Assembly (NCBI GenBank): GCA_016183245.1
Contig: JACPEY010000011.1
Coordinates: forward strand, 5,568 to 69,567
Reading direction: 5' to 3'
DNA length: 64,000 nucleotides
Origin: Candidatus Daviesbacteria bacterium
Lineage (GTDB): Bacteria; Patescibacteriota; Microgenomatia; Daviesbacterales; UBA10151
The notes beneath the pieces were generated by a model that did not search any database, was not told the DNA's origin, and saw only the letters and a program-made list of their open reading frames with translations. Made by a program: the position numbers and the translations under genes. The first letter of the stretch is position 1. The number at the start of each line of letters is the position of its first letter. This document shows positions 1,868 through 63,803 of the stretch, in pieces.

Positions 1868-2731
1868 TTGCTCTTACGCTCTGCGAATGATATTATACGC
1901 ACTAATATGTCAAATCCAAAAAGTCCTGAGGGAGGCAAAAGAGAACCGTATAATGCAAGTCTTCCAGCTGGACACGGTAAGTGGAGAAAAGAAGTTTCAG
2001 ATGATGAATTGCCTACAGAGGAAGAATTGCAGAAGTTGATATATGGTGATCCACCACTAGCAGCTTTCACTCAAGATAATTCGGATCAAGAAGGTGGTTT
2101 GGTAACATTCCCAGGAAGTGGTTTCCTGCCTTTTGCTCCTGGAACCCGTCGCCCCACTAGTGCTCTTGGTGGACATCGTTGGTCTTGGACTGAACGTGCT
2201 ACAGAAAATCCTTCTGTAGTTCAACCTTCTAAAGAAGATACGGGATTTAGAGAACCAAGAAGAATCAATGAGATAAGGCCAGAAGAGATAGAAACATATT
2301 TGGCTGTACCAGGTTGGCGTATTTGGGTGAGACGTCATTCCGATACCCAAGAATTCTGTTTAAGTGCCCAAGAAGCTGGAGCAAGAGAATTATCCTTAAC
2401 AACTGATGTGTATGGTAAAGGTTATGATCCAATACATTCCAAACTTGAAGCTATTGATAGACAACTACATCCTAATGGTCCAAGATTGCCATTTGGGTAC
2501 AGAAGTTCTATTTGTACCACATACCTACCATGGTATATTCTAGAGCCTTTAACTGCAGATGAAGTGAAGACTATTGACGAATTAGGGGAAGCTTCAGGTC
2601 CAGCAAGTTCTATTGATAGAGCGGCAGAAATCTTGAGACCAGATGAATTAAAAAAGATCTTAGAAGAACCAGATATTCCTTCGTCTAGGAATCGGTTCCG
2701 TCCTATTCAATTTCCGCCAGCAACGATATAA
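1868..2731 (+). CDS. Hypothetical acidic protein with no recognisable domain, in a region of atypical composition.
   Basis: A long intact ORF whose GC is visibly higher than its neighbours. A REP copy lies immediately downstream. Confidence 0.4.
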   Translation: MLLRSANDIIRTNMSNPKSPEGGKREPYNASLPAGHGKWRKEVSDDELPTEEELQKLIYGDPPLAAFTQDNSDQEGGLVTFPGSGFLPFAPGTRRPTSALGGHRWSWTERATENPSVVQPSKEDTGFREPRRINEIRPEEIETYLAVPGWRIWVRRHSDTQEFCLSAQEAGARELSLTTDVYGKGYDPIHSKLEAIDRQLHPNGPRLPFGYRSSICTTYLPWYILEPLTADEVKTIDELGEASGPASSIDRAAEILRPDELKKILEEPDIPSSRNRFRPIQFPPATI

Positions 2732-2743
2732 TCCTTAAAATAT

Positions 2744-2775
2744 GTCAATACAAATCCACCCCCCCCAGGTGGAAA
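2744..2775. repeat. REP-like palindromic element (CCACCCCCCCCAGGTGGA core), copy 1, intergenic.
   Basis: The sequence tgtcaatacaaatccaccccccccaggtgga shares the CCACC-Cn-AGGTGG core with 5 other copies in the window. Confidence 0.6.
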
Positions 2776-2839
2776 ATATGAATTTGGGGTACAAATATAT
2801 GTTTCGTTTAAGGTAGTAAGAGATTGCAAAGTGAAAATT

Positions 2840-4702
2840 TTAGAATACATTATCGAATCTTTTGTGAGTCATAACTTCTTCTAAAATTACTGCTTTTGTT
2901 TTTGGGTTAATATAGTAAACTGTTCTTAGCTTCTCAGAAAATTGTTTATTTCCAAAAGGTAATCTTCTGGTGTCGCCCCGGAAACTTCGAAGCGACATTT
3001 TTTGACCGTTTTCAAAAATAGCAGATGCACTCTTTATTTTATAAGTCCCGGAACCAAAAGGATCTTCCTGCAGCGATTCAAGTATGAGTTTTATATCGCT
3101 TCTTAACCTCTGATCTCCAGGTATTAAATCGTTTGCAATTTCTTCTGCAAGAAGTCCTATATCTTGAATTTCAACTGTCTGACCGTGATAAATCAGCGCA
3201 TAATTTTCTTTTTCTTCTTGTTCGTGGGGTAAGGATTCAGTTGAAAGATCAGGCATTTCCTGACGGCCAGTAATAAGTGCAATAGACCTGAATGCTCGTC
3301 TCTTAGGAGATTTAGAAACATGCTTTATGGAATCTGATTCCTGGCTGGGAGAAGCAGGCATTGAAGGGGTATATCGTGGAAGCGGTTTGAATTCCACTAG
3401 AGGATTTCCTGTTCTGGCTTCTCTAAGAACAGGAGTTAATAAGTTCTGTATTAATAGATTGGCTGAAGCAGAATTGTCTTTCTGGAGTTGAGGAGGAACC
3501 CCAAGAAGTTGGCCATTTTGAACTAAATCTAAAGTAACAAAAACTTGTTCATCTTCAGTTATACCCACAATAGTGAGAGTTTTACCATATAGCGCTCCTA
3601 CTAAAATTTCATTAAAAAAAATATCTGTCTGGATTGGTATCCTGAGAAATCCATCTTTTGAAGCTTGAGCAGCACCTCTCAGATGTTTGTGATATAAGAC
3701 GGTAGCTTTTATTAGAGTTTCTGTTGTAGTATTTAAAGATGTCTTTTCAGCTTGACTCATTTTTGTCTGATCACGGTATGTTTGGCGTAGTATTTTAGCT
3801 AGTTTGGCTTCAGATCCTGGATTGGTATATTGGTACTTAGCGATTGCTTGGGGTATTTGTGCGGGGGACATGGTTTGCAAAAGAGATGTCATTGTGTGGA
3901 AGAAACCACTATTTCGTATGAAATGTCTAAATATTGAAGGGTTTAGGTTTTCCGTATGGGCATCGATCAGGCGGTAAGTAGATGAGGGTGTAATGTGAAG
4001 CCTAGCCGGGATAAAGCTAAGTAGCGCCCAGGGTAAATGATTTCCAGGTACCATCTTCAGCATAAAAAAGGGGGACTCATCTTTTTGATCATAGTTTAAA
4101 GCCCAGGCAGTGTAATACTCCCAATAATTTTTAAGCCTTTGTATTAATAGTCTTGCCTGATCTGAAATGGGAACTTTAGGGAAGAGCGTTGCTTGAGTAG
4201 CTGCTAAGTTAACCACACTTTGGATATAGAATGTTGGATCCCGGGGTTGACCTTCTTTTGTCTGGACTGGCTTAGTCCATTTATCAATCATTCGATCGAT
4301 TCGGGTAATATCCCTCGTACTCAAAGGAAGAGACATCTGACTTATATCTTTTAGAGAAGTGCCGTTGACCCGAAAGACTAGAGGATTGGCAGCAATATTT
4401 TTTTCTACACAAGCTTTTGTTGCACTCCATGAGCCCCCAGAAGTTACCAGAGGCATGCTATCTAGAAGTCGTTTGGTATCATCTAGGTATCCGGTATAGC
4501 CTGCCCATTGTGAGATTGTATGTAACAAAGTTGGCGGTCTGCTATAAACCCCAAGGTAATAATTGCCATCATCTTCCCTTATAGCTTGGTCCCATTGCCT
4601 AACAGTTTCTTGGATATTTCTCTCGAAAGTATTTAAACAAGTGATATATCTAATGGCTTGATGACTTTTGGCTTGATGACTTTGATTTTTAGTTCTCTCC
4701 AT
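2840..4702 (-). CDS. Hypothetical 620-aa protein. The C-terminal ~60 aa weakly resemble a RelE/ParE-fold toxin.
   Basis: A long ORF of atypical, higher GC. The C-terminus RLPFGNKQFSEKLRTVYYINPKTKAVILEEVMTHKRF resembles the RelE core YRLVYQVIDEKVVVFVISVGKRE. No signal peptide is present. Confidence 0.45.
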   Translation of the reverse strand: MERTKNQSHQAKSHQAIRYITCLNTFERNIQETVRQWDQAIREDDGNYYLGVYSRPPTLLHTISQWAGYTGYLDDTKRLLDSMPLVTSGGSWSATKACVEKNIAANPLVFRVNGTSLKDISQMSLPLSTRDITRIDRMIDKWTKPVQTKEGQPRDPTFYIQSVVNLAATQATLFPKVPISDQARLLIQRLKNYWEYYTAWALNYDQKDESPFFMLKMVPGNHLPWALLSFIPARLHITPSSTYRLIDAHTENLNPSIFRHFIRNSGFFHTMTSLLQTMSPAQIPQAIAKYQYTNPGSEAKLAKILRQTYRDQTKMSQAEKTSLNTTTETLIKATVLYHKHLRGAAQASKDGFLRIPIQTDIFFNEILVGALYGKTLTIVGITEDEQVFVTLDLVQNGQLLGVPPQLQKDNSASANLLIQNLLTPVLREARTGNPLVEFKPLPRYTPSMPASPSQESDSIKHVSKSPKRRAFRSIALITGRQEMPDLSTESLPHEQEEKENYALIYHGQTVEIQDIGLLAEEIANDLIPGDQRLRSDIKLILESLQEDPFGSGTYKIKSASAIFENGQKMSLRSFRGDTRRLPFGNKQFSEKLRTVYYINPKTKAVILEEVMTHKRFDNVF

Positions 4703-4765
4703 AGGCTAAAAATTATATCAGTTTAGACCTATAATATCAAATAATCGCATTCAGAGGCAAAAAAT

Positions 4766-7717: not shown

Positions 7718-8746
7718 TTATTTGAAATATTTCCAGGTTTCGTATTTGCTCTGTAGTTGGTCTTCGGTGACACCTACTGGTTTGAGTCCGGCAACTTTAT
7801 TAAATCCCAAGTCCAAAAGCTCGGCTGTCCACAGGTCCCTTTCTAAAACTCCCGGGGCCCCTAACAAAACTGCTAAAATTTTGCTGCCTTCTCTTTCCGA
7901 CACCACAATTGTAGAGTGGCCTGCTTTTCCTGTATTGCCAATTTTTACTCCCGAAACATTAGGGTAAACACCTATCAGTCCGTTCCAGTTATTTAAATAA
8001 AACCTTAAATCAGTGGCATTTTTGGTTAAGTCCTCAAAGGGTTTTGATACGATTTGGGCAATTTCCGGGTATTCCTTTAATGCGTAAGCGGAGAGCGTGG
8101 TTAAGTCTTCCGTGCTGCTGAAATGATTGCTGTCATCATAACCTTCGGCATTGGTAAAATGGGTGTTTTTCAGGCCTAAAATTTGGGCCTTTAAATTCAT
8201 AGCTTTAATAAAAGTTCCTGGTTCATACTTTAAATCTATTCCTTCTTTAATTACTTCAGCGCTGTCATTGGCAGAAGATATCAGCATATGTTTTAAAAGA
8301 TCCAAAATACTAAATACCTCTCCTTCTTTCAGCATTACTTTAGTCGGAATTTGAGATGCAGCTTTTTCTGAAACGCTAAATTTCTCATCTGGTTTTGTCA
8401 GGTCAAGCGCCACAATTGCTGTCATAATTTTTGTAAGTGATGCAACAGGCAGCCTTTTTGATGGATTTTTAGCGGTAATGATTTGCCCGCTGCTCAAATC
8501 TGCCACAGTATAGGCTCGGGCCTCTTCATAATCAGACCCGGCAAAAACAGCAGAAATTAGTTGTTTTTTGATTTGAAAATAATTCTGTCTGGTTTCGAGT
8601 TTAGTTTTAACCTGTTCTAAAATACCAACAGGTTTTGGCATGGGGTTAATAAGTCTTTTACTAATCCCAAGATGAGGCATAACCACCATTAAAAAAGTCA
8701 AAAGCAGACCGGTAGAAAATATTCTGATAGATCTTGTTGTAAGCAT
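7718..8746 (-). CDS. dacA: D-alanyl-D-alanine carboxypeptidase (S11, PBP5-like).
   Basis: SxxK (ASLTKIMTA), SxN (SSAND) and KTG-like (KIGNTGKAG) motifs are present, together with an N-terminal signal. Confidence 0.8.
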   Translation of the reverse strand: MLTTRSIRIFSTGLLLTFLMVVMPHLGISKRLINPMPKPVGILEQVKTKLETRQNYFQIKKQLISAVFAGSDYEEARAYTVADLSSGQIITAKNPSKRLPVASLTKIMTAIVALDLTKPDEKFSVSEKAASQIPTKVMLKEGEVFSILDLLKHMLISSANDSAEVIKEGIDLKYEPGTFIKAMNLKAQILGLKNTHFTNAEGYDDSNHFSSTEDLTTLSAYALKEYPEIAQIVSKPFEDLTKNATDLRFYLNNWNGLIGVYPNVSGVKIGNTGKAGHSTIVVSEREGSKILAVLLGAPGVLERDLWTAELLDLGFNKVAGLKPVGVTEDQLQSKYETWKYFK

Positions 8747-17729: not shown

Positions 17730-18869
17730 GTGATATTTATTAAAAAAGTTGAGAGTTTTGGAAATGCATATTTTGATCCTTTACAGGATGATGTGGAGAT
17801 TTCTGTAAGGACAGGAAAATTACACCCAAATGACCGGGAGAAGATTTCTGAGATGGTCAAATCAGCGAATAAGAAATTGTTTATTCCCCACTACTATGAA
17901 TGGATTTTTGATGGTAGCGTTAAGTTGGTAGGAGTAAAGCTATATACTCCATCTATTATTGCTTCTGCTTCCTTTCCTGTCATTGCGAGGAGCGAAGCGA
18001 CGCGGCAATCCTCAACGAATTGGGAAGATCGCCACGCTATCGCTCGCGATGACAAAAAGGTTTCTGCAGTCAAGGTGTTTTTTGATTTATCAGTAGGGCT
18101 TACAATTGAAAAAGAGATAGACGGGGTATACATAGCTTCTGAGAAAATATTTGACCTTAACAAACCCGGAGAATCATTTGAGAATCTAGTTTTTAGACTG
18201 GTGGAATCTGCCATTACTTTTCCCCGTTCCCTGATACTTTTTAAACTGGCGGATAAATCAGAAGGCCTGCCTGACGGCAAGGCAGGCATGGGTAAAGTGC
18301 GCGGCAGTTTGCGGTTGCTTCATCAGAAAAGTTTATTTGATCCTCTTTTGGAAGTTTTAGATTTTGCCCGTCACAAAAAAGGACTGACAAATATTCATAT
18401 AGTCATACCATATGTGCGGGGTGTAAATGAGCTTCTAAAAATAAAAAGAGAACTGGCTGTCCGGAAGCTCTCCAGAAAAAATTCATTAGGGCATTGGATG
18501 GAAATAGCTTTACCGGAAAATATTATTAATTTGGAAGATTATTTGATTGCAGGGATTGACGGGGTTGTTTTAAACCTTGATGAACTGATTTCCCACTTGA
18601 ACGGATTTGATATCAAAGAAGAAGAGCTGATATTTTATAAAAATGAGGCAGAGGGGTTAATGAAGTTTTTAGAAGACGGCATTAGGCTTTTACATAAATC
18701 AAAAGTTCCTTTTATAGCATCCGGTACTTCAACTTTTAATCAAAAAATGTTGGAGTTTTTAGTGGAGAAAGGGGTAACGGGGGTGGTGGTAGAAAAATAT
18801 GAAGCTCACTCTGCTAAGGATTTATTGCATCAGACAGAAAGAAGGATAGTTTTAAGAAGGGTGGAATAG
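17730..18869 (+). CDS. PEP-utilizing-enzyme-like protein (resembles the C-terminal TIM-barrel of PEP synthase/PPDK) carrying an in-frame palindromic insertion.
   Basis: The blocks NIHIVIPYVRGVNELLKIKREL and IAGIDGVVLNLDELI resemble the PEP-utilizing barrel. The 25-aa segment VIARSEATRQSSTNWEDRHAIARDD is encoded by a 75-bp palindromic element. Confidence 0.35.
   Translation: MIFIKKVESFGNAYFDPLQDDVEISVRTGKLHPNDREKISEMVKSANKKLFIPHYYEWIFDGSVKLVGVKLYTPSIIASASFPVIARSEATRQSSTNWEDRHAIARDDKKVSAVKVFFDLSVGLTIEKEIDGVYIASEKIFDLNKPGESFENLVFRLVESAITFPRSLILFKLADKSEGLPDGKAGMGKVRGSLRLLHQKSLFDPLLEVLDFARHKKGLTNIHIVIPYVRGVNELLKIKRELAVRKLSRKNSLGHWMEIALPENIINLEDYLIAGIDGVVLNLDELISHLNGFDIKEEELIFYKNEAEGLMKFLEDGIRLLHKSKVPFIASGTSTFNQKMLEFLVEKGVTGVVVEKYEAHSAKDLLHQTERRIVLRRVE
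17979..18053. repeat. MITE-like palindromic element (GTCATTGCGAG...CTCGCGATGAC termini), 75 bp, in frame inside a CDS.
   Basis: The termini gtcattgcgag and ctcgcgatgac form a perfect 11-bp terminal inverted repeat. The 75-bp length (a multiple of 3) preserves the reading frame. Confidence 0.6.
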
Positions 18870-19535
18870 TAAAATATATTCGCCTTTGGGATTTTTGAGA
18901 GTTTCCAGCCAACTTGAAACTGGTTTTGTTTCAACGCTTTGGTGGATTTTGGTCAGTTCATGAGCCAAAGTGATATTAATGTTTCCAAAAACTTCTTTAA
19001 TGCTTTCTATAATCCTGATTAATTTATGTGGAGCTGCAAACATTATATATGTCATCTCCCCGGGTGTCCTATCTGATTCACCCCCCAGGTGGATAAACTG
19101 AGAAAGGAATTTTTTTCTATGGCCGGGCTTTTCCGGCGGGTATCCTAAAAACATGAATTTATCAGGTGGCAGGCCGGATAAAGTAAGTGCTGTGATTGCT
19201 GATGACGGCCCTGGTAAGGAATCAACTTTAACTTCCTGTTGCAAGCACTCTCTGATTAGTTTATACCCGGGATCAGAAATTAAAGGGGTGCCGGCATCAG
19301 AAACCAGGGCCAAATTTTGGCCGTTTTTTAGACGATCGACAATAGTTTGTACACTTCGGGCTTCGTTATAGTCATTTAAAATAATTAGAGGTTTATGAAT
19401 GTTATAGTGGTTCAATAGCAGGGACGTTCTTCTGGTGTCTTCACAAATAATTCCATCAACTGACTCAAGAGTCTCTAGCGCTCTTAGGGTAATGTCTTTG
19501 AGATTGCCGATAGGAGTGGCGACAATATATAGCAT
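18852..19535 (-). CDS. rsmI: 16S rRNA (cytidine1402-2'-O)-methyltransferase RsmI (tetrapyrrole-methylase family) carrying an in-frame REP insertion.
   Basis: The family motifs LYIVATPIGNLKDITLRALETL and ICEDTRRT are present. The inserted peptide HLGGESDRTPGE is encoded by REP copy 2. Confidence 0.8.
   Translation of the reverse strand: MLYIVATPIGNLKDITLRALETLESVDGIICEDTRRTSLLLNHYNIHKPLIILNDYNEARSVQTIVDRLKNGQNLALVSDAGTPLISDPGYKLIRECLQQEVKVDSLPGPSSAITALTLSGLPPDKFMFLGYPPEKPGHRKKFLSQFIHLGGESDRTPGEMTYIMFAAPHKLIRIIESIKEVFGNINITLAHELTKIHQSVETKPVSSWLETLKNPKGEYILLFHPS
19057..19094. repeat. REP-like palindromic element, copy 2, inside the rsmI coding sequence.
   Basis: The sequence ccccgggtgtcctatctgattcaccccccaggtgga matches the family consensus. 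Confidence 0.6.
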
Positions 19536-27813: not shown

Positions 27814-30800
27814 ATGGCTGACAACACCTTTGAATATGACTTAACTTTGCCGCTGCCTCCAGAGGTAAAGGATAAGGATGTTGAGGTAAAAGCTGCTGAA
27901 ACAGAAGCAGAATTGCCTTCTGCACCTAAATTAGATGAGCCAAAAGAAAAGTTAGCAGAAACGATTACTATTAAAGGGTTAAATCACTTTACAGTTTTTG
28001 TGATAACTTTGCCCAGTCCGGATACTGCACAAAGGGTATTAATTAATGAAATATTACCAAACCCGACAGCCGGGGCAGAATGGGTAGAGCTGTTTAATAA
28101 TGGAACACAACCTGTTAATTTAGCAGCCGGGACTGGCTGGACTATAAGAAATTCAGCCTCTGATGCTCAATCTTTGAGTGCTTTGGGGACTATTCCGGCA
28201 GCAGGCAGGGTTGTATTTGAAGCCCCTGCAAACTGGTTAAGCAATGTTGCCCCAGAGACTGTTACTTTATCAAACGAGTTGGGTACAGCAGTTGATACAG
28301 TAACCATATCTTTAGTTGCGCCCGGATTTGCAATTGATCACTATCCTCTGGCAGGCGAGTCAGTCGGCAGAAAGACAGATGGCGTGGCAGAATGGGTAAT
28401 CTTTACAGCTCCGACAAAAGGGACAGCTAATTTACTACCGGCAACCGGCGGTGCGGGAAAATTGGCTGAAGTTGGACCAATTGCCCCAGCAGGTGGATTA
28501 AGAGCAGGATTCCCGGTTTGGTATAAAGATTCCAATGGTTTGGCTCTTGATTTGATGGAAGCGGCAGATCCGAGGGGGATTTCTGATCCTGTTGACCCTG
28601 GTAATCCATTTTCTGCTCAAATAGGATTTAATGCTGAAGGATTTTGGTGGTCTGCCGAAGCAGATATGTCAACCTCAGGACCAAATGGTGCTCTCCTAGT
28701 TCAGGCTATAGAAGCTGCATTTGCCGGAGAAGCTGCAGTAGATGGTGAGCAATCAGCCTTTGCCAGAGCCAGAATCAGGATTGATGTTGCCGAACCTGGA
28801 ACTTATACTGTAACTTATCCTTATGGCACAAAAACTTACACTGTAGCTTTGGCTGATATCGGCCCGGGATACGAGATTAATGATACTGCCGATATTGGTT
28901 GTTTTGCCATTCCGGGAGTACTAAATTGTGCCAGTGCGACCCAGCCTAATTTCTCAACGGTGCTAAATGGAGGAATCGGACCATTCTTAACCTGGGATAC
29001 CTTCAATACAAATCCGGCTCTTTCGGATCCGCTTTTGACTGATCCAATTACCGGAAGAAGATATGTAGGTAGTGTTTTAGGCGGGCCTCATGTAGTCAAA
29101 GGTTCTCCAACAGGTAATAATTTCTTTAGAATTGCCGGGCCAAATATCGGAGGACCAGGAGTAAATGTAGTAGAAACAAACCTATTTACTGTTACCGGAA
29201 GATTGGCAGATGCTACAGGTCCTGTTATAACCCTGCATGGGGCAAACCCAGTCAACGTCAATCAGAATGCTGTTTATACAGATGCAGGAGCCACAGCCTT
29301 GGACGACCAGGACGGAAATATAACTGCTAACATTCAAGTAACCGGTCTTCCTGTAGACACTTCAACTTTGGGATCTAAAACTGTGACCTACACCGTTACT
29401 GATAGTGCAGGCCATACTACAACAGCAACTAGAACTGTTAATGTAGTAGCTGTTGGAGGTATAGATATTACGGCTCCTGTTATTACGGTGACTGGTGCTA
29501 ATCCAGCAACAGTTACTGCCGGAACTCCGTATAACGATGCCGGGGCAACAGCATTAGATAATGTAGACGGAGATATTACAGCCAATATTGTGACCACCGG
29601 TCTACCAATAAATACTTCTGCACCCGGTTCATTTGCTGTAACTTATACTGTCTCTGATGCAGCCGGAAATCCTGCTACAGCCGCAAGGACTGTAAATGTG
29701 GTAGCAGATATTATTCCGCCGGTAATTACTGTGCTTGGATCAAATCCGGTAAACGTGCTTGTTGGTGCGGCATATACTGATGCCGGCGCTACAGCAGTAG
29801 ATAATGTTGATGGAAATGTAACAGTAAATATCACAACTACCGGCTTACCTATTAATACTGCTGCAGCCGGTTCATTTGCTGTAACTTATAATGTTACTGA
29901 TGCTGCAGGCAATACTGCTACAGCTACCAGAACTGTAAATGTAGCTGCAACTCTTCCTGCAGGACTTGTTGAAGTCGGACCCGTAGCCCCAGCAGGTGGA
30001 TTAAGAGCAGGATTCCCGGTTTGGTATAAAGATTCTAATGGTTTGGCTTTGGAATTAATGGAGGCAGCAGATCCAAATGGTATTTCTGCTGCTGTTGACC
30101 CTGGTAATCCATTTTCAGCTCAAATTGGTTTTGGTGCTGAAGGCTTTTGGTGGTCAGCCGATGCCAGTATATCTACTTCGGGGCCAAATGGTGCAATTTT
30201 AGTACAAGCTGTTGAAGCTGCATTTGCCGGAGAAGCTGCAGTAGATGGTGAGCAATCAGCCTTTGCCAGAGTCAGAATCAGGATTGATGTTGCCGAACCA
30301 GGATCTTATACTGTAACTTTCCCCTATGGTACAAAAACATATGTGGTAGATGCTGTAGGTGCAGGGTTTGAAATTAATGACACCTCAGATATTGGCTGTT
30401 TTGCCCAAATAGGAGTTGCCAGTTGTAATCAGGCCACACCTCCTAATTTCTCTACTGTACTTGCAGGTCAAATCGGACCATTCTTGACCTGGGATACCTT
30501 CAATACAAATCCGGCTCTTTCGGATCCTATCCTGACCAATATTGCAACCGGGAGAAGATATGTAGGTATTCCGGTGCCTCATGCAGTCAAAGGTTCTCCA
30601 ACAGGTAATAATTTCTTTAGAATTGCCGGGCCAAATATCGGAGGACCAGGAGTAAATGTAGTAGAGACTAATCTGTTTGATGTTACCGGACGCATAGCTG
30701 ATGTAACTCCTCCGGTTATCACTCTAAATGGTGCCAACCCGGATACTGTTGTACAAAATGCAGTATATGTGGACCCGGGATCCATAGCTTTGGATGACTT

Positions 30801-33606
30801 TGATGGAAATGTAACAGGTAGTATTGTAACTACAGGTGTGCCTGTTGATACATCTATAGTAGGCGCAAAAACTGTTACTTATACAGTTACTGATATAGCT
30901 GGTAATACAGCCGTTGCAACTAGAACAGTCAATGTAACCGGAGTAGATAACACTGCACCTGTCATTACCTTACTAGGTACTAGCCCTGTGGATGTCACAG
31001 TTGGCACGGCTTATGTTGATGCCGGTGCTACTGCTTTAGATAATGTAGATGGTGATCTAACAGCCAGTATAGTAACTGTTAATCCTGTAAACAGCAATGT
31101 TATTGGTACCTATACAGTTACTTACAACGTCTCAGATGCTGCCGGAAACCCTGCAATAGAAGTTACCAGGACGGTTAACGTAGTGGCTACGACTGATGTT
31201 ACTCCCCCAGTTTTCAGTGCTATTTCTGCAAGTTCTAATAATGCCAATCCGGCTTTGGGCAAAAGCGGTGATGTTGTGACTGTTTCTTTTGTCACCAGCG
31301 AGCCATTATCTGCCAATCCGACAGTGACTATTGGTGGTGGAGCAATGACTTTTGTCTCTCTGGCTGGTTCAACATACACATTTAACCGCACTCTGGATGG
31401 TACAGAGATTGAAAGCGGACAAATTTCCATCACCGGTTCTGATGCAGCCGGTAATCCAGGTGCCAATAATACTGCTACTTTTGCCTTGGACTTTGCACTT
31501 CCAACAGGATCGATTGCTATAAACGGTGGCGCCCTTTATACGACCACGACTGCAGTTATTTTAAATTTTTCCGGAGTTTCAGCTGATGTGACTCAAATTC
31601 AACTTCGAAACGGCACAGTTGGAGCTTTTCAGACAGCAATTCCTTTTGAAAATCCCCACGCTTATGTTTTACCTAATACCCAAGGGGTAAGAGTTGTATC
31701 TGTCCGTTTTATTGACGCAGCCGGAAATCAAAGTACCGGAGTAATTTCAGATGATATTACTTTTGATAATGTTGCCCCGACTGATCCATTGGACGTAGTT
31801 TCTACCAGCCACACTGCTAATGTATCTACGGACAATACTATTGATATGGCCTGGTCTGCGGCTGGTGCTCCTCTAGGAGCAAATGACTTGGTTAGCGGAG
31901 TAGCCGGCTATTCTTATTCTTTCACTCAAGGGGCAACTGATTTGCCTGATACTACAGTGGATTTGCCTTCAACTGCCTTGGGTGTAACCAGTGAAGCTCT
32001 AACAAATGGTACTTGGTTTTTCCACCTTAGAACTCTGGATAATGCCGGAAGTTGGACTTCAACTGTTCATGTTGGGCCATTTAATATTGATGTTGTGGTT
32101 CCGACTACAGGTACAATTTCCGGTTTGGTATTTCAGGATACAAACGCTAACCGCACCAAAGATGCGGGTGAACCGGTTCTGCCCGGATGGACGCTGTATC
32201 TGGATGCAAATAACAACAGGGTGCTGGATGCAGGGGAGGTATTAATTGTAAGCGATGCCGCAGGTAATTATCAGTTTGCAGGACTGCTTCCAGGAACTTA
32301 TAATATTAATGAAGTTAAACAGCCAAACTGGGGTATCAGGTTACCGGGAGACAATGGTTATACACAAATATTGGCTGCAGGGGATAATATCACAGGTAAG
32401 GATTTTGGGAATATAGTTACCCGGTCGGTTAGCGGCCAGGGCCAGGGAGGATTTGCAACAACTACCGGAACAACTCTGACGCCATCGGTTGTGTCAGTTG
32501 GCGACTCTGTCATTGATGTCCCTTCAAACGGGGGTACAAGCAAAGTGACAGTCCCTGCTGATACTATAATTACCGAAAGCACCGGCGCAGTTTTTGATTC
32601 GGCAGCTTTGGCAGCCTCTGACCCGGCTGGTGCGGTGATATCAGGGTTGGGAACAGGTGTTGTAGTTCGGGGAAAACTGCAATGGGGAGTTCCCAACTTA
32701 GGGTTAGTATTCTCAAACCCGATTAATTTGGAAATCTTTGTCGGTACAGATCTTAATGGGCAGGTACTTGATATACTGCGCTCAGTTGAAGGTACAACCA
32801 ACTGGACAAGTGACGGAATTGTGCCTCCGGGCAAATGCACGGTTGCAAACGGCATATGTGCGTTTCAGGCTACAAAAGCTTCATATTATATTGCAGCTCA
32901 AACTGTCAGTCCAACCCCGACACCTACTCCGACTCCTGCATCTGCTACTACCAGCGGTGGTGGAGATAGCGGAAGCGGTGGGGGAAGCGCCAGTGCTCCG
33001 TCTTGCAATGATCCTGTTGCAGGAGGCGCACCGACTTTACTCTCGGCAACTGTATCAGGAGACAATCAAGTTACCTTAACCTGGAGCAAAGCTGCTGATC
33101 CTGTAACACACTATGTAGTAGCTTACGGGTTATCAGCAGGCAACCCGCAATTTGGAAATCCAAATGTTGGCGGGAAAGAGACAACTTCTTATACAGTAAA
33201 AGATCTTTCAGGCGGTACAACTTATTTCTTCAGAGTCAGGGCAGGAAACGGTTGTAATGCCGGTCCTTACTCAAACGAAATATCAGCAACTCCCGGCGGA
33301 AGACAGACAACAGGTCCTGCAGCTGGTTTCCAGGCTGGAGTGTTAGGTGCTTCGACCTCGCTGGGAGAAGGCACGGGTGGTGCTGATCCTAATAACCCAG
33401 ACGCTCCTGATGCAGGCAAGGGTGAAGATGCAGTTACGGAAGGGATTTCTGATATCCTGGGTGCAGATCAGAAAGTAAGCGATAAACCTAACCAGTCATT
33501 TGGAGGTTTCTTGAATACTCAAAGGGCTATTATCGGGGTGTTGCTGCTATTCGTCGCACTCTTTGCTGCTAATGCTTATCGTCTAAGGGCCCGTCGCCGC
33601 AGTTAA
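27814..33606 (+). CDS. Giant 1930-aa surface protein with a lamin-tail domain, two copies of a ~250-aa module, about 6 DUF5011 Ig-like repeats, a Cna-B/SdrD-like fold, a PT linker, FN3, and a C-terminal TM plus basic tail.
   Basis: The lamin-tail motif INEILPNPTAGAEWVELFNNG is present. The DUF5011 repeats have the form PVITLxGxNPxxVxxGxxYxDxGATAxDxxDGxxT. The FN3 domain reads LTWSKAADPVTHYVVAYGL...YFFRVRAGN. The C-terminus is IIGVLLLFVALFAANAYRLRARRRS. Confidence 0.8.
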   Translation: MADNTFEYDLTLPLPPEVKDKDVEVKAAETEAELPSAPKLDEPKEKLAETITIKGLNHFTVFVITLPSPDTAQRVLINEILPNPTAGAEWVELFNNGTQPVNLAAGTGWTIRNSASDAQSLSALGTIPAAGRVVFEAPANWLSNVAPETVTLSNELGTAVDTVTISLVAPGFAIDHYPLAGESVGRKTDGVAEWVIFTAPTKGTANLLPATGGAGKLAEVGPIAPAGGLRAGFPVWYKDSNGLALDLMEAADPRGISDPVDPGNPFSAQIGFNAEGFWWSAEADMSTSGPNGALLVQAIEAAFAGEAAVDGEQSAFARARIRIDVAEPGTYTVTYPYGTKTYTVALADIGPGYEINDTADIGCFAIPGVLNCASATQPNFSTVLNGGIGPFLTWDTFNTNPALSDPLLTDPITGRRYVGSVLGGPHVVKGSPTGNNFFRIAGPNIGGPGVNVVETNLFTVTGRLADATGPVITLHGANPVNVNQNAVYTDAGATALDDQDGNITANIQVTGLPVDTSTLGSKTVTYTVTDSAGHTTTATRTVNVVAVGGIDITAPVITVTGANPATVTAGTPYNDAGATALDNVDGDITANIVTTGLPINTSAPGSFAVTYTVSDAAGNPATAARTVNVVADIIPPVITVLGSNPVNVLVGAAYTDAGATAVDNVDGNVTVNITTTGLPINTAAAGSFAVTYNVTDAAGNTATATRTVNVAATLPAGLVEVGPVAPAGGLRAGFPVWYKDSNGLALELMEAADPNGISAAVDPGNPFSAQIGFGAEGFWWSADASISTSGPNGAILVQAVEAAFAGEAAVDGEQSAFARVRIRIDVAEPGSYTVTFPYGTKTYVVDAVGAGFEINDTSDIGCFAQIGVASCNQATPPNFSTVLAGQIGPFLTWDTFNTNPALSDPILTNIATGRRYVGIPVPHAVKGSPTGNNFFRIAGPNIGGPGVNVVETNLFDVTGRIADVTPPVITLNGANPDTVVQNAVYVDPGSIALDDFDGNVTGSIVTTGVPVDTSIVGAKTVTYTVTDIAGNTAVATRTVNVTGVDNTAPVITLLGTSPVDVTVGTAYVDAGATALDNVDGDLTASIVTVNPVNSNVIGTYTVTYNVSDAAGNPAIEVTRTVNVVATTDVTPPVFSAISASSNNANPALGKSGDVVTVSFVTSEPLSANPTVTIGGGAMTFVSLAGSTYTFNRTLDGTEIESGQISITGSDAAGNPGANNTATFALDFALPTGSIAINGGALYTTTTAVILNFSGVSADVTQIQLRNGTVGAFQTAIPFENPHAYVLPNTQGVRVVSVRFIDAAGNQSTGVISDDITFDNVAPTDPLDVVSTSHTANVSTDNTIDMAWSAAGAPLGANDLVSGVAGYSYSFTQGATDLPDTTVDLPSTALGVTSEALTNGTWFFHLRTLDNAGSWTSTVHVGPFNIDVVVPTTGTISGLVFQDTNANRTKDAGEPVLPGWTLYLDANNNRVLDAGEVLIVSDAAGNYQFAGLLPGTYNINEVKQPNWGIRLPGDNGYTQILAAGDNITGKDFGNIVTRSVSGQGQGGFATTTGTTLTPSVVSVGDSVIDVPSNGGTSKVTVPADTIITESTGAVFDSAALAASDPAGAVISGLGTGVVVRGKLQWGVPNLGLVFSNPINLEIFVGTDLNGQVLDILRSVEGTTNWTSDGIVPPGKCTVANGICAFQATKASYYIAAQTVSPTPTPTPTPASATTSGGGDSGSGGGSASAPSCNDPVAGGAPTLLSATVSGDNQVTLTWSKAADPVTHYVVAYGLSAGNPQFGNPNVGGKETTSYTVKDLSGGTTYFFRVRAGNGCNAGPYSNEISATPGGRQTTGPAAGFQAGVLGASTSLGEGTGGADPNNPDAPDAGKGEDAVTEGISDILGADQKVSDKPNQSFGGFLNTQRAIIGVLLLFVALFAANAYRLRARRRS

Positions 33607-34514: not shown

Positions 34515-36548
34515 ATGGCAAAATTTCAAATTGTTTCAGATTTCAAACCTACTGGGGACCAACCACAAGCCATTGAGAAGCTGGTTAACGGGATAAATAA
34601 AGGCAGACAGCACCAGGTTTTGCTTGGAGTAACAGGTAGTGGTAAGACTTTTACTATGGCTAATGTTATCCAGAAAGTGCAAAGGCCGACCCTGGTTATT
34701 TCCCATAATAAAACTTTAGCAGGACAACTGGCTCAGGAGTTTAGGTCTCTGTTTCCAAATAACGCTGTTGAGTATTTTGTTTCTTATTATGATTATTACC
34801 AGCCAGAAGCGTATATTCCCCAATCAGATACTTATATTGAAAAGGAAACCCAGATTAATGAGGAAATAGAAAAGTTAAGGCTGTCTGCAACTGCATCACT
34901 GCTTAGCAGAAAAGATGTGATAGTAGTAGCCTCAGTTTCTGCAATCTATAACTTAGGTTCTCCAATAGAGTATGGCCAGGCAATACTGGAAATCGGCCCG
35001 GGCATGAAAGCCGGTATGCAGCAGGTGATGAAGATTTTGCAGAAGATGTTTTATAAGCGCAATGATATTGATTTTAAAAGGGGGACATACCGGGTCAGGG
35101 GTGATACGGTTGATATTTTTCCTTCATATAAAGATCAAGGTTACAGGTTACAATTTTTAGGGGACAGACTGGAGAGTGTAAGCGAGTTGGAGGTTGTGAC
35201 AGGTAATGTTTTAAAAATGCAGGGAACGCAGACTATTTATCCTGCCAAGCATTACATTACTTCGGAACAAAGGATTGTGCCGGGAATTAAACAAATAGAA
35301 ATCGATTTAGAATCTAGAGTCAAGAGTCTAGAGTCAAGTGGAAAATTGATAGAAGTGCAGAGATTAGACCAAAGGACAAATTATGATTTGGAGATGATCC
35401 GGCAATTCGGGTACTGCAACGGAATTGAAAATTACTCCCGCTATTTTGACGGCCGGAACCCCGGGGACCCTCCATATACTTTGCTTCATTACTTTCCTCA
35501 AGACTTTTTGCTCGTTATTGATGAATCCCATATGACTATCCCTCAAATTCGGGGGATGTATAACGGGGACCGGTCAAGGAAGGAAACTTTAATAGATTTT
35601 GGGTTCAGGCTGCCTTCGGCTTTGGATAACAGGCCCTTAAAGTTTGATGAGTTTATGAGGATGATTAACCAGGCAGTTTATGTTTCAGCCACTCCGGATG
35701 AGTATGAATTATCCCTAGCGAATTCATCCCACCTGGGGGGTGGTCTAGATAGGACACCTAGGGGTACTGATGGGTTGTATAGCCATGATGGGATAGCGGA
35801 ACAATTGGTCAGGCCAACTGGGATTTTGGATCCGGAGGTTTCTGTAAGACCGATTAAAGGTCAAATTGAAGATTTATTAAGAGAAATAGAGACTAGAGTC
35901 AAGAGTCAGGAAAGGGTATTGATAACAACTTTAACCAAAAGAACAGCTGAAGATTTGGCAGATTATTTAAAGGAAAAAGGCATTAAGGTGCACTATCTGC
36001 ACTCTGATGTTAAAACTTTAGAAAGAGGGGATATTTTACAGGCTTTGAGGTTGGGGGAATATGATGTGATTGTGGGAATTAATTTACTTCGGGAAGGTCT
36101 GGATTTGCCGGAAGTTTCACTGGTGGCAATTTTAGATGCTGATAAGGAAGGGTTTTTAAGGTCCAGGACTTCTTTGATACAGACCATGGGCAGGGCTGCC
36201 AGGCATGTTAGAGGGCAGGTAATTATGTATGCCGACATTGTCACCAAATCCATGAAAGCAGCCATAGATGAGGTAAAAAGAAGGAGGAAATATCAGGCAG
36301 ATTACAATAAAAAACATAATATTACGCCGAGAAGCATAGAAAAAGCTTTACGGGAAAGGTTGATAGAGAAAGTAGAGGAGCTGGAAGAATCTTTGGGTAA
36401 AACAGATTTAACTGTTGATGATATTCCGGTAGAGGATCGGAAAAAAATGATTAAAAACCTGGAAGCCCAGATGAAACAGGCAGCAGAACTTTTAGACTTT
36501 GAAGAAGCTGCCAAAATTCGGGATCAGATTAAGGAGTTAAGTATTTAG
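34515..36548 (+). CDS. uvrB: Excinuclease ABC subunit B (UvrB) carrying an in-frame REP insertion.
   Basis: Walker A (GVTGSGKT), helicase motifs, the VRPTGILDP block and the C-terminal UVR motif (EEAAKIRDQI) are present. The region between YEL and QLVRPTG is about 20 aa longer than the E. coli UvrB sequence recalled from memory, and it contains HLGGGLDRTPRGT. Confidence 0.9.
   Translation: MAKFQIVSDFKPTGDQPQAIEKLVNGINKGRQHQVLLGVTGSGKTFTMANVIQKVQRPTLVISHNKTLAGQLAQEFRSLFPNNAVEYFVSYYDYYQPEAYIPQSDTYIEKETQINEEIEKLRLSATASLLSRKDVIVVASVSAIYNLGSPIEYGQAILEIGPGMKAGMQQVMKILQKMFYKRNDIDFKRGTYRVRGDTVDIFPSYKDQGYRLQFLGDRLESVSELEVVTGNVLKMQGTQTIYPAKHYITSEQRIVPGIKQIEIDLESRVKSLESSGKLIEVQRLDQRTNYDLEMIRQFGYCNGIENYSRYFDGRNPGDPPYTLLHYFPQDFLLVIDESHMTIPQIRGMYNGDRSRKETLIDFGFRLPSALDNRPLKFDEFMRMINQAVYVSATPDEYELSLANSSHLGGGLDRTPRGTDGLYSHDGIAEQLVRPTGILDPEVSVRPIKGQIEDLLREIETRVKSQERVLITTLTKRTAEDLADYLKEKGIKVHYLHSDVKTLERGDILQALRLGEYDVIVGINLLREGLDLPEVSLVAILDADKEGFLRSRTSLIQTMGRAARHVRGQVIMYADIVTKSMKAAIDEVKRRRKYQADYNKKHNITPRSIEKALRERLIEKVEELEESLGKTDLTVDDIPVEDRKKMIKNLEAQMKQAAELLDFEEAAKIRDQIKELSI
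35727..35764. repeat. REP-like palindromic element, copy 3 (reverse orientation), inside the uvrB coding sequence.
   Basis: The sequence tcccacctggggggtggtctagataggacacctagggg matches the family consensus in reverse. Confidence 0.65.
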
Positions 36549-37803: not shown

Positions 37804-37840
37804 TTCCACCTGGGGGGTGGGCTAGGTAGGACACCTAGGG
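37804..37840. repeat. REP-like palindromic element, copy 4, at the 3' flank of the RAYT.
   Basis: The sequence tccacctggggggtgggctaggtaggacacctaggg matches the family consensus. Confidence 0.65.
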
Positions 37841-37862: not shown

Positions 37863-38612
37863 CTATTCCTGTACGAGATGTTGAATTTTATGAAGTTGTC
37901 TTTGATAATCGGCATGGTCTTCGATAAATTTTTGATAAACCTTAGGATTTATGAAAAGGCTCATTATTATATCTAAATTACAAATCTCAGCCTTATTACT
38001 TAGATATTCAGAGAGGGATGACCAGGGATATGCAAATAAGGTATTTAGATCCTTTACGACGTAGGAGGTATAGGGATTGAGATGAATGTATCTTGAAATG
38101 TGTATTAACTGTTCATCAGTTATGATTAGTTTAGCTTTAAATTGATCTAAGAAGAGTGATCCATCGCGTTCTCTTTTAGTATTAGAATATCTAGTGTAGC
38201 TATTTTGAAAATTCCCCAAAAATTTAGAAATTCCCTTATCTTTAATTTGTTTTATTAAAAAATGGAAATGATTTGGCATTAAACAAAAAGCCAGAATTTC
38301 TACAAGCTTATCATCTTCTTTCCTCAAATTATCCATAATTTTTGTCCGGTCATCATTTGAAAGTGTTAGAAATTTTGATAATTTAGCGGGAAGATTGCTG
38401 AATCTATAGAAGTCGATTACAAGCCTTGCTCTTTTGTATTCCAGTTTATCTAAGAAAGTTGGTTGATGATTTATCCCACGGTTAAAAACATGATAAATTT
38501 GGTCATTAACTAAAGGTGTTAATCTACCCGGCATATTTCTTAGAATAACCCTGATATCCCTAGGTGTCAATAGAAATCCACCCCCCAGGTGGACTATACT
38601 ATTCAGATTCAA
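37863..38612 (-). CDS. REP-associated tyrosine transposase (RAYT; IS200/IS605-like Y1 HUH transposase).
   Basis: The N-terminal block YHVFNRGINHQPTF, the HUH motif NHFHFLI and the catalytic-Tyr block RYIHLNPY are present. The first ~17 codons (HLGGGFLLTPRD) are REP-encoded, so the real start may be the internal Met at ~38534. Confidence 0.75.
   Translation of the reverse strand: MNLNSIVHLGGGFLLTPRDIRVILRNMPGRLTPLVNDQIYHVFNRGINHQPTFLDKLEYKRARLVIDFYRFSNLPAKLSKFLTLSNDDRTKIMDNLRKEDDKLVEILAFCLMPNHFHFLIKQIKDKGISKFLGNFQNSYTRYSNTKRERDGSLFLDQFKAKLIITDEQLIHISRYIHLNPYTSYVVKDLNTLFAYPWSSLSEYLSNKAEICNLDIIMSLFINPKVYQKFIEDHADYQRQLHKIQHLVQE
38558..38594. repeat. REP-like palindromic element, copy 5, at the 5' end of the RAYT.
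   Basis: The sequence ccctaggtgtcaatagaaatccaccccccaggtgga matches the family consensus. Confidence 0.65.
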
Positions 38613-39294
38613 TACTGCCGGAGCCTTCCTGTTCTTTGTTGACTTGTGGGGGTTCTTCTCTTAGAAAATATTGAATTGTTGGATCATCTTCTTCCCATTT
38701 TTTTATTTTTTCGCGGGCTTCAGTGTTTAAATCGCGTCCTGCAACGGGGATTATTTCCTTTCCCAATCTGTTTAGGATTCCTAATACTTTAGGATCAGCA
38801 ATAGTTTCTCCTGTAACCGGATCCAAGTCTTCATAACTAACCGCAATTTCATCAAATGGGAGTTCTAATGCTCCTTGTAAAGGTATACTGGAAAAATGGC
38901 CTGTCTCCTTCCTTAATTTTTGTGCTTCCTCAATTGACAAAGTTCCTCTTGCTACCCCTAAAGGAATATAAGGATTTGAGGGTTTTTCTTCCTCATTAAG
39001 AGTCCCTCCCTGTAAAGTAATTTCCTGATAGGTTTTAAAGTCAAGTGCCATATACTTAGTATAATTTATTTGATCACGCTCTGCTACTTCACTCTTTAAT
39101 AATCTTGCAAAATGGGGTAAAATAATAGTTTGATTTTTCGAAGAAAAATAGTCCCACGGTTTATTTTTCGGGGAAAATATGGCTATAGACAAAATTACTA
39201 TTAAAGGTGCTAGAGAACATAATTTAAAAAATATTGACCTGGAAATTCCTAAGAACAAGTTAGTGGTTTTAACCGGGATCTCCGGTTCAGGCAA
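38599..39294 (-). CDS. Hypothetical protein with an uncertain start (the annotated 5' end overlaps the uvrA start).
   Basis: The ORF overlaps the first ~115 nt of uvrA on the opposite strand. An internal Met near 39054 is the more plausible start. Confidence 0.3.
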   Translation of the reverse strand: MPEPEIPVKTTNLFLGISRSIFFKLCSLAPLIVILSIAIFSPKNKPWDYFSSKNQTIILPHFARLLKSEVAERDQINYTKYMALDFKTYQEITLQGGTLNEEEKPSNPYIPLGVARGTLSIEEAQKLRKETGHFSSIPLQGALELPFDEIAVSYEDLDPVTGETIADPKVLGILNRLGKEIIPVAGRDLNTEAREKIKKWEEDDPTIQYFLREEPPQVNKEQEGSGSIESE

Positions 39295-62792: not shown

Positions 62793-63803
62793 ATGAAAAT
62801 TGGTTATATCGGTCTTGGCAGGATGGGGAAGAATATGGTCCTCAACCTTTTGGAAAAAGGGATTGAGGTGGTGGCATATAACCGGTCCCCTGAGCCCAGG
62901 GAAGAGCTGCAAAAAGAAGCCAGCCAGTTAAAAAGCGGATCAGAGAATTTAAAGGTAGCAGATAATCTGGGAGAGTTGGTGACAGAGTTAAGGAATAATA
63001 AAGAAGATCCTGGACAAGCCAGGATGACAGAAGGGGAGGACGGAATTGTGATCTGGTTAATGATCTCTGCCGGTGCAGCCATTGACGCTGTTTTGGAGGA
63101 ATTAAGCGATAAATTAACTTCCGGAGATCTGGTAATTGATGGCGGAAATTCCCTTTATACAGATACTTTAAGGCGGGGTAAGATGCTTTCCCAAAAAGGA
63201 ATCCATTACATGGATGCCGGCACTTCCGGCGGAATTGAGGGAGCAAGGAATGGGGCTTGTATCATGGCAGGCGGTTCTGAGGAGGATTTTAAGAAAGTGG
63301 AGCCTGTATTAAAAGCTGCTGCACAACCGGGCGCTTATGCTTATCTGGGTCCTCTGGGTGCAGGTCACTTTGCCAAAACAATTCATAACGGAATTGAGTA
63401 TGGCATGATGCAGGCAATCGGGGAAGGTGCGGCAATTTTGAAAAATTCCGGGTTTCCTTATGATTTGCGGGAAGTTTTCCGTATTTACAATACCGGCTCA
63501 ATTATTGAATCAAGGCTGGTGGGATGGACTTTGGCAGAACTTAAAAATGACCCTGAACTTGCCAATATTACCTCTGTTATCGGTTCAGGAGGTGGTGCAG
63601 GTAAAACAAAAGGAGAAGCTCACTGGACAGTGGAACTGGCTAAAAAATTAGGGGTAGGTGTGCCGGTTATAGAAGCATCGGTAGCAGTCCGGGACAACTC
63701 TGATCAGGATAAGGAAGATTCTCCCAATGGTTTCCGTAATAAAATAGTTGCTGCCATGCGCTGGCAATTCGGCAGACATCCGGTTAAGAAACAAATTCCC
63801 TAG
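62793..63803 (+). CDS. gnd: 6-phosphogluconate dehydrogenase (decarboxylating), short YqeC/Gnd-like form. It carries a probable partial palindromic-element insertion, and its stop codon is supplied by a REP.
   Basis: NAD-binding IGYIGLGRMGKNM and the catalytic blocks GTSGGIEGARNG and KTIHNGIEYGMMQAIGEG are present. The extra segment NNKEDPGQARMTEGEDG at 63001-63030 resembles the right end of the uvrA elements. The TAG stop lies inside REP copy 6. Confidence 0.8.
   Translation: MKIGYIGLGRMGKNMVLNLLEKGIEVVAYNRSPEPREELQKEASQLKSGSENLKVADNLGELVTELRNNKEDPGQARMTEGEDGIVIWLMISAGAAIDAVLEELSDKLTSGDLVIDGGNSLYTDTLRRGKMLSQKGIHYMDAGTSGGIEGARNGACIMAGGSEEDFKKVEPVLKAAAQPGAYAYLGPLGAGHFAKTIHNGIEYGMMQAIGEGAAILKNSGFPYDLREVFRIYNTGSIIESRLVGWTLAELKNDPELANITSVIGSGGGAGKTKGEAHWTVELAKKLGVGVPVIEASVAVRDNSDQDKEDSPNGFRNKIVAAMRWQFGRHPVKKQIP

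Follow-up and report, generated by a model that had tools for sequence, protein, structure and literature searches.

This study concerns orf620, a gene for a hypothetical protein in a 64-kb window (the whole stretch of DNA under analysis) of a metagenome-assembled genome of Candidatus Daviesbacteria, a bacterium of the candidate phyla radiation (CPR, or Patescibacteria). Structure prediction indicates that the C-terminal ~120 residues of its product have a RelE/ParE toxin fold, and comparison of its relatives shows that this C-domain is joined to at least two N-terminal domains (N-domains) that are not detectably related to one another. The gene is not part of a foreign island rich in guanine and cytosine (GC), and its neighbour orf274, likewise annotated by NCBI as encoding a hypothetical protein, is an unrelated lineage-specific orphan and not its partner. 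The gene and its predicted parts are laid out as follows.

2840..4702, minus strand: orf620 (HYU95_00855), open reading frame (ORF) of 620 aa, the same sequence as NCBI protein P0001
3338..4702, minus strand: N-domain, residues 1-455, which the AlphaFold2 (AF2) model shows as largely alpha-helical, its one small beta-sheet lying at 352-393
3212..3337, minus strand: linker, residues 456-497, predicted to be disordered; a P-K-R-R motif is conserved at 466-469
2843..3211, minus strand: C-domain, residues 498-620, with a RelE/ParE fold predicted by AF2 and Foldseek

The C-domain, which ends in ...KLRTVYYINPKTKAVILEEVMTHKRFDNVF, was modelled by AF2 from a 44-sequence alignment (residues 492-620) with a predicted local distance difference test (pLDDT) score of 94.7, and in this model combines a beta-hairpin and two helices with an antiparallel sheet and a helix at the C-terminus. 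The top 19 PDB matches of the model in Foldseek were all RelE, HigB, YoeB or ParE (PfiT) toxins, with probabilities of 0.72-1.00 and target-normalised template modelling (TM) scores of 0.47-0.68, led by archaeal RelE (1wmi_A; E 1.6e-3, probability 1.00, target-normalised TM 0.68). The full-length AF2 model (pLDDT 88.2, predicted TM score 0.76) independently rebuilt the C-domain and recovered the same toxin matches. At the sequence level, neither orf620 nor its isolated tail matched RelE/ParE-type profiles (PF05016, PF06769, PF09907 and others) at E <= 10. The profile of the C-domain family reached YoeB in the PDB at E 0.17, and comparison of the family with Pfam gave YoeB_toxin at E 0.024 and ParE_toxin and HigB_toxin at 0.076, in 1-2 of the 44 members, all of these matches being sub-threshold.

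About 95 proteins that share the N-domain of orf620 carry another tail, of the form ...FExG...LRVGDYRIIL...GHRREIY, which is a classical RelE/ParE signature. Nine of 60 such sister tails matched PF05016 (ParE_toxin; best E 9e-6), the sister-tail protein P0016 matched phrog_1213 ('RelE-like toxin') at E 1e-8, and the best PDB matches of a sister-tail profile were RelE3, RelE and Rv2866. Alignment of window-type with canonical tails by hhalign gave the expected common register, at a P of only 0.03. The RelE-like C-terminal tail proposed in the first-pass annotation is thus borne out by the predicted fold of the last ~120 residues and, by sequence, in the sister tails; profile comparison of the C-terminus, taken by itself, left the tail of orf620 below threshold while placing some of those attached to the same N-domain within PF05016 and phrog_1213.

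Conservation within the C-domain may point to residues of the kind used by these toxins. Across the 44 sequences R593 (in KLRTVYY) and H613 are invariant, P548, G552, D536, F616 and D617 are conserved at >= 93%, and R572, R575 and R579 at 70-86%. Judged by motif register, R593 would be the counterpart of the arginine in the RelE "GYRLVY" motif (R61/R81-type), and a weak hidden Markov model alignment suggests that H613 corresponds to the C-terminal catalytic His of YoeB (H83). In the sister tails, Arg is conserved at 100% and 98% at the R61-like and R81-like positions.

An exhaustive profile search collected 153 cluster representatives (clustered at 50% identity) at E <= 0.001. A word-indexed protein search had returned two relatives only, a 150-sequence alignment gave the same three proteins, and a search of GTDB genomes and JGI metagenomes with a close-subfamily alignment of orf620 found nothing. 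All family members with a named source come from CPR bacteria of the Microgenomates type. Some 100 proteins of ~560-680 aa have the N-terminal region in common (profile positions ~100-470), and the three-part architecture of ~600 aa is kept in ~100 cluster representatives whose identities are 15-25%. The C-terminal ~125 residues of orf620 are common to 44 proteins, 11 of which have the architecture seen in the window. In 26 others, of ~460-520 aa, the N-terminal ~340 residues have no detectable relation to the N-domain of orf620 (the two types of N-domain align in hhalign with a probability of 0.2%), and one carrier, a protein of 800 aa, suggests a third N-domain. Seemingly stand-alone C-domain proteins (121-252 aa) were set aside as fragments: those checked lie on contigs < 1.2 kb, and two cluster with proteins of 470-494 aa.

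The N-domain itself resembled nothing in the databases searched. Among 80 family members it had no Pfam match, no PDB profile match fell outside the tail, and Foldseek returned no credible match in PDB or BFVD. Direct searches with the orf620 sequence against Pfam, NCBIfam, PADLOC, PHROGs and PDB gave no match, apart from a weak similarity to AGS_C (E 0.06-0.11) that was discarded, being far under the cut-off and not recurring across the family. The earlier statement that neither protein of the gene pair has recognisable domains holds in that neither matches Pfam or NCBIfam. Conserved motifs of the N-domain are NGTSLxDI, NYWEYYT (YFDYY in the wider family) and PARLxI(S/T)PSS, and its N-terminus is modelled as a long helix. 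Residues 457-497 have pLDDT < 50 in the full-length model, and PxKRR is kept in the consensus of the orf620 family.

RelE/ParE toxins are normally tiny and paired with an antitoxin. Their superfamily is marked by an alpha/beta fold of the microbial RNase kind (beta-alpha-alpha-beta-beta-beta, in some members with one more helix at the end). The predicted fold of residues 498-620 is that of type II toxins of this superfamily (RelE, YoeB, HigB, ParE; PF05016, PF06769, PF09907), and a conserved Arg in an RxVY strand together with a conserved His near the C-terminus recalls YoeB. Unlike the stand-alone toxins of ~90 aa, the domain forms the tail of a 620-aa chain, falls under every Pfam threshold, and has an insertion of ~15 residues (TRRLPFGNKQFSE) and an extra N-terminal hairpin; unlike type II toxin-antitoxin modules, orf620 has no adjacent antitoxin gene. 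The nearest architectural precedent is Cami1, a CARF-RelE effector of type III CRISPR systems (PDB 8phb) whose activated form cuts A-site mRNA (PMC11229360). In Cami1 a regulatory or sensor domain and a RelE-family nuclease make up one chain, so that it is also the closest model for the way in which orf620 might act, but orf620 has no CARF or SAVED match in Pfam (the weak AGS_C similarity being the sole hint), its N-domain is unrelated, no CRISPR link was seen, and Foldseek comparison of 8phb with the orf620 models gave only weak matches (probability 0.16-0.51). Fused single-chain toxin-antitoxin proteins include CapRel(SJ46) and EzeT, which have toxSAS and zeta kinase folds. With these orf620 shares a toxin-fold domain and a presumed cis-acting control region in one polypeptide with no antitoxin gene, although its toxin fold differs and its cis-inhibition is only presumed. 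A literature search found no description of the orf620 family; the RelE fold is known, while the architecture, with its long unmatched N-domain, its lack of an antitoxin and its named sources restricted to CPR bacteria, has no description in the libraries and literature searched.

Neighbouring genes were examined at 13 family loci, ten with different members and three repeating one of those. At none of them does a conserved antitoxin or immunity gene stand beside the family member, no downstream gene co-varies with the toxin tail, the downstream genes differing at every locus, and the flanks are mutually unrelated. They include a cupin gene with a HAD gene, extracytoplasmic function (ECF) sigma genes, Bro-N with recA-recX-rny, def-fmt, an Eco47II restriction enzyme with a DNA methylase, a PIN protein after a small ORF, a serine recombinase and glycosyltransferases. 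At three loci (L003, L006, L011) a member of the orf620 subfamily is immediately preceded by ECF-type sigma genes with small unannotated ORFs; no sigma homologue lies near orf620 in the window.

By analogy with characterised toxins, we tentatively favour, as a quite possible explanation, that the tail of orf620 is a RelE/YoeB-type RNase that acts on ribosome-bound mRNA and is gated or targeted by its own N-domain and linker. The C-domain would be an RNA-binding or RNA-cleaving module of this type, restrained or directed by the N-domain and linker that precede it in the chain; such control is proposed because no separate antitoxin gene was found. In that case orf620 would arrest translation as a one-chain effector under cis control, in stress or anti-phage defence, with a layout like that of other sensor-RelE fusions. 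The mobile or defence-type neighbours at some loci (Eco47II with its methylase, PIN with the small ORF, Bro-N and the serine recombinase) count in favour of this explanation.

Several observations weigh against it. Cis-inhibition by the N-domain is a conjecture, the Foldseek E-values are modest even for the best match (1.6e-3), and orf620 itself is silent in Pfam, NCBIfam and PADLOC. Moreover, the last two residues of orf620 are V619-F620, whereas K-Y stands there in 68% of the family. The C-terminal Tyr87 of Escherichia coli RelE matters for catalysis, so that this copy, with V-F in place of the terminal K-Y, may be weakened. Finally, many members lie amid housekeeping genes (ribosomal protein genes, recA, def-fmt), which would fit a housekeeping role equally well.

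Such a role is at the centre of the alternative that survives best, though we consider it unlikely: the RelE-fold domain would no longer be a toxin and would bind ribosomes or RNA as part of a factor peculiar to the CPR, with a housekeeping or translation-associated task and no need of an antitoxin. The lack of an antitoxin at any of the 13 loci agrees with this, as do the missing terminal K-Y of orf620 and the placement of members amid core genes (ribosomal protein genes, rpoA, recA-recX-rny). Furthermore, at two independent loci def-fmt immediately precedes a member of the ~465-470-aa architecture, which combines the C-domain of orf620 with another N-domain, and a 666-aa family member lies 1-4 kb from fmt and def, the genes for Met-tRNA formyltransferase and peptide deformylase, which in many bacteria are followed by rsmB. 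However, the basic and His positions taken as counterparts of catalytic residues show no or almost no variation in either tail type, def-fmt adjacency is absent at two other loci of the ~470-aa architecture (L095, L096), and the genomic context varies widely, with no copy near the anchor gene in the only close relative found to have it and at all other loci fetched with it, which would be unusual for a core factor. A general association with def-fmt was rejected, as it holds at only two of four independent ~470-aa loci and near the one 666-aa member.

A third explanation, based on the first-pass annotation, takes orf620 for a horizontally acquired, exported toxin-like effector and orf274 for its partner or immunity gene within a two-gene island of elevated GC. 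The genes concerned are arranged as follows.

1907..2731, plus strand: orf274 (HYU95_00850), an acidic orphan rich in Pro, Gly and Glu, whose longest ORF begins at TTG 1868 (287 aa)
One flank of the gene pair: a cyt-b5-like gene and a ferric-reductase-like gene
Other flank: genes for a GDSL hydrolase (the immediate upstream neighbour of orf620 in the window), PBP1a, a D-Ala-D-Ala carboxypeptidase and a GH18/GH19 protein

The toxin fold predicted for the C-terminal domain, the adjacency of orf274 and the occurrence of one N-domain with two variant tails, which recalls polymorphic toxins, speak for this proposal. Nevertheless, most of it is refuted and we regard it as very improbable. orf620 has no signal peptide or transmembrane segment (highest 19-residue hydropathy 1.38), and no trafficking domain was found in Pfam scans of orf620 and of 80 family members; with no conserved neighbour at the 13 loci either, a secreted effector finds no support. 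The two genes are convergent, separated by 108 nt, and so do not form a unit. The product of orf274 was described as an acidic 287-aa protein; it is acidic (pI 5.2), but translation of the plus-strand ORF 1868-2731 likelier starts at ATG 1907 than at TTG 1868, giving 274 aa in agreement with the NCBI annotation. It found only itself among 5.8 billion protein clusters, had no homologue in JGI metagenomes and no match in Pfam, NCBIfam, PHROG or PDB, and gave a single sub-threshold match in PADLOC (E 0.056). At the loci of the three closest relatives of orf620, where <= 468 nt are present downstream of the gene, tblastn with orf274 detected nothing.

Composition likewise gave no sign of foreign origin. 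The GC of the region is 0.398, compared with 0.391±0.025 in 2835-nt windows over the 64 kb, which places it at the 69th percentile; that of orf274 is 0.418 and that of orf620 0.391, the same as the whole window. Both genes are richer in GC than the ferric reductase (0.367) and GDSL (0.333) genes, as had been noted, but only these two neighbours are poorer; PBP1a (0.407) and the directly adjacent cyt-b5 gene (0.438) match or exceed the region. GC at third codon positions, taken as the best reflection of the mutational background, is 0.225 in orf274 and 0.291 in orf620, both below the mean of 0.329±0.048 of the window's genes, and the surplus G+C of orf274 resides at codon positions 1 and 2 because of the many Pro, Gly, Ala, Arg and Glu residues of its protein. 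When the other genes of the window served as training set, a codon-usage frame score was 0.382 for orf274 and 0.375 for orf620, near the 0.395±0.068 of those genes; both ORFs are therefore real, native-looking genes. The tetranucleotide distance of the region from the window average lies at the 89th percentile (+0.5 standard deviations). With GC, third-position GC, codon use and tetranucleotides all native and not departing from the window background, neither the island nor horizontal acquisition is upheld. No integrase, tRNA or flanking direct repeat was found at 1.8-4.8 kb of the window. In the closest relative found, locus L015 (PBP1a 68% identical), the gene order is rearranged here, so that no empty insertion site can be defined, and the ferric reductase and cyt-b5 genes are also missing nearby. 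Altogether, neither the GC "island" nor the "toxin plus immunity pair" exists.

A last explanation would see in orf620 a gene in decay or a mistaken gene call, in which the relic of a toxin gene has become joined accidentally to an ORF upstream. It would suit the mere three to five close homologues and is scarcely credible, refuted as it is by conservation of the ~600-aa three-part architecture in the ~100 diverged representatives, by confident AF2 models for both domains and by the invariant key residues.

Pattern matches around orf620 suggest how it may be transcribed, and a family of repetitive extragenic palindromic (REP) elements contributes to them. The elements concerned, with a transposase discussed below, are the following.

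4712..4740, minus strand: promoter-like site upstream of orf620, TTGATA-17-TATAAT with TG extension (11/12), a consensus match only
2755..2773, no strand assigned: partial REP copy, a TCCACC-CCCCCCC-GGTGGA hairpin within the 108 nt that separate the convergent genes
37863-38612, minus strand: Y1 (IS200-like) transposase resembling REP-associated tyrosine transposases (RAYTs), scoring 35 bits with Pfam Y1_Tnp (cut-off 23)

On the minus strand, the REP hairpin is followed by TTTGTATT, a T-run, 67 nt beyond the orf620 stop, in a terminator-like arrangement, and it probably serves as the terminator of orf620; its fold z-score of 0.02 is unremarkable. Promoter-like sites are not in excess in the region as a whole. 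From the promoter-like site and the terminator-like hairpin, both of them pattern matches only, orf620 appears to be transcribed alone, as a monocistronic unit. The REP copy had been described as bounding the gene pair. It does belong to a true repeat family, whose core CCACCCCCCAGGTGG occurs in six copies against 0.02 expected, but the copy is partial, comprising only the terminal hairpin, and lies between the two genes rather than at their outer edge.

The full REP element is a palindrome of ~37 nt with the consensus TCCCTAGGTGTCCTATCTAGACCACCCCCCAGGTGGA. Inverted copies (37806-37840, minus strand; 38557-38597, plus strand) flank the Y1 transposase, so that this CPR genome shows the classic layout of a RAYT with its REP elements. 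The system resembles known REP/RAYT systems in its six palindromic copies with a Y1 transposase between inverted ones; it departs from the norm in the partial copy beside orf620, in a transposase score below the NCBIfam cut-off (NF047646, REP-associated tyrosine transposase; E 2e-13, 50 bits against 80) and in two copies that lie in frame inside genes. One of these (35712-35789) is within uvrB (34515-36548), where UvrB has, exactly at the REP, an insertion of 26 aa at residues 400-425 relative to solved structures. The other (19057-19097) is within a TP_methylase-family gene (18852-19535), which we take to be RsmI-like. Both in-gene copies encode the same peptide, HLGG-x-x-DRTP-x-G, and recall the Rickettsia palindromic elements, which insert into coding sequences. 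One copy of the REP core is also present in L015, at 8323-8337.

A second palindromic element, GATTCTGGACAAGCCAGAATGACAAAAAGGG, occurs in three copies, all in frame 0 within genes and encoding D(S/P)GQARMT(K/E). Two of them (39647-39677 and 39953-39983) lie in uvrA (39179-42265), at places where its product carries insertions when compared with solved UvrA (query residues ~143-165 and 233-275); the third (63006-63036) lies in a 6PGD-like gene (62793-63803). Elsewhere in the window, a 1930-aa ORF (27814-33606) contains internal direct repeats in units of ~243 nt and duplications of ~1.5 kb (28.4-29.4 and 29.9-30.9 kb). It is the strongest tetranucleotide outlier of the window and probably encodes a large repetitive surface protein.

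The genomes of CPR bacteria are tiny, and few defence systems have been recognised in them. The N-domain of orf620, being without a match in Pfam, PDB and the viral-protein models of BFVD, is a candidate both for a new fold and for a new sensing domain. In its most far-reaching form, which we find rather doubtful, the explanation favoured here would make the family a class of single-protein translation-arrest effectors known so far only from CPR bacteria: a new-fold domain of ~455 aa would sense a trigger such as phage, stress or ribosome state and, via the PKRR linker, free or activate the RelE-fold nuclease with no antitoxin involved, and at least two unrelated N-domains would have recruited this module, one of them in a def-fmt operon at two loci. 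A conserved family that carries this fold at the end of chains of ~600 aa and lacks an antitoxin gene would be a second natural case of a "sensor plus RelE" effector, after Cami1.

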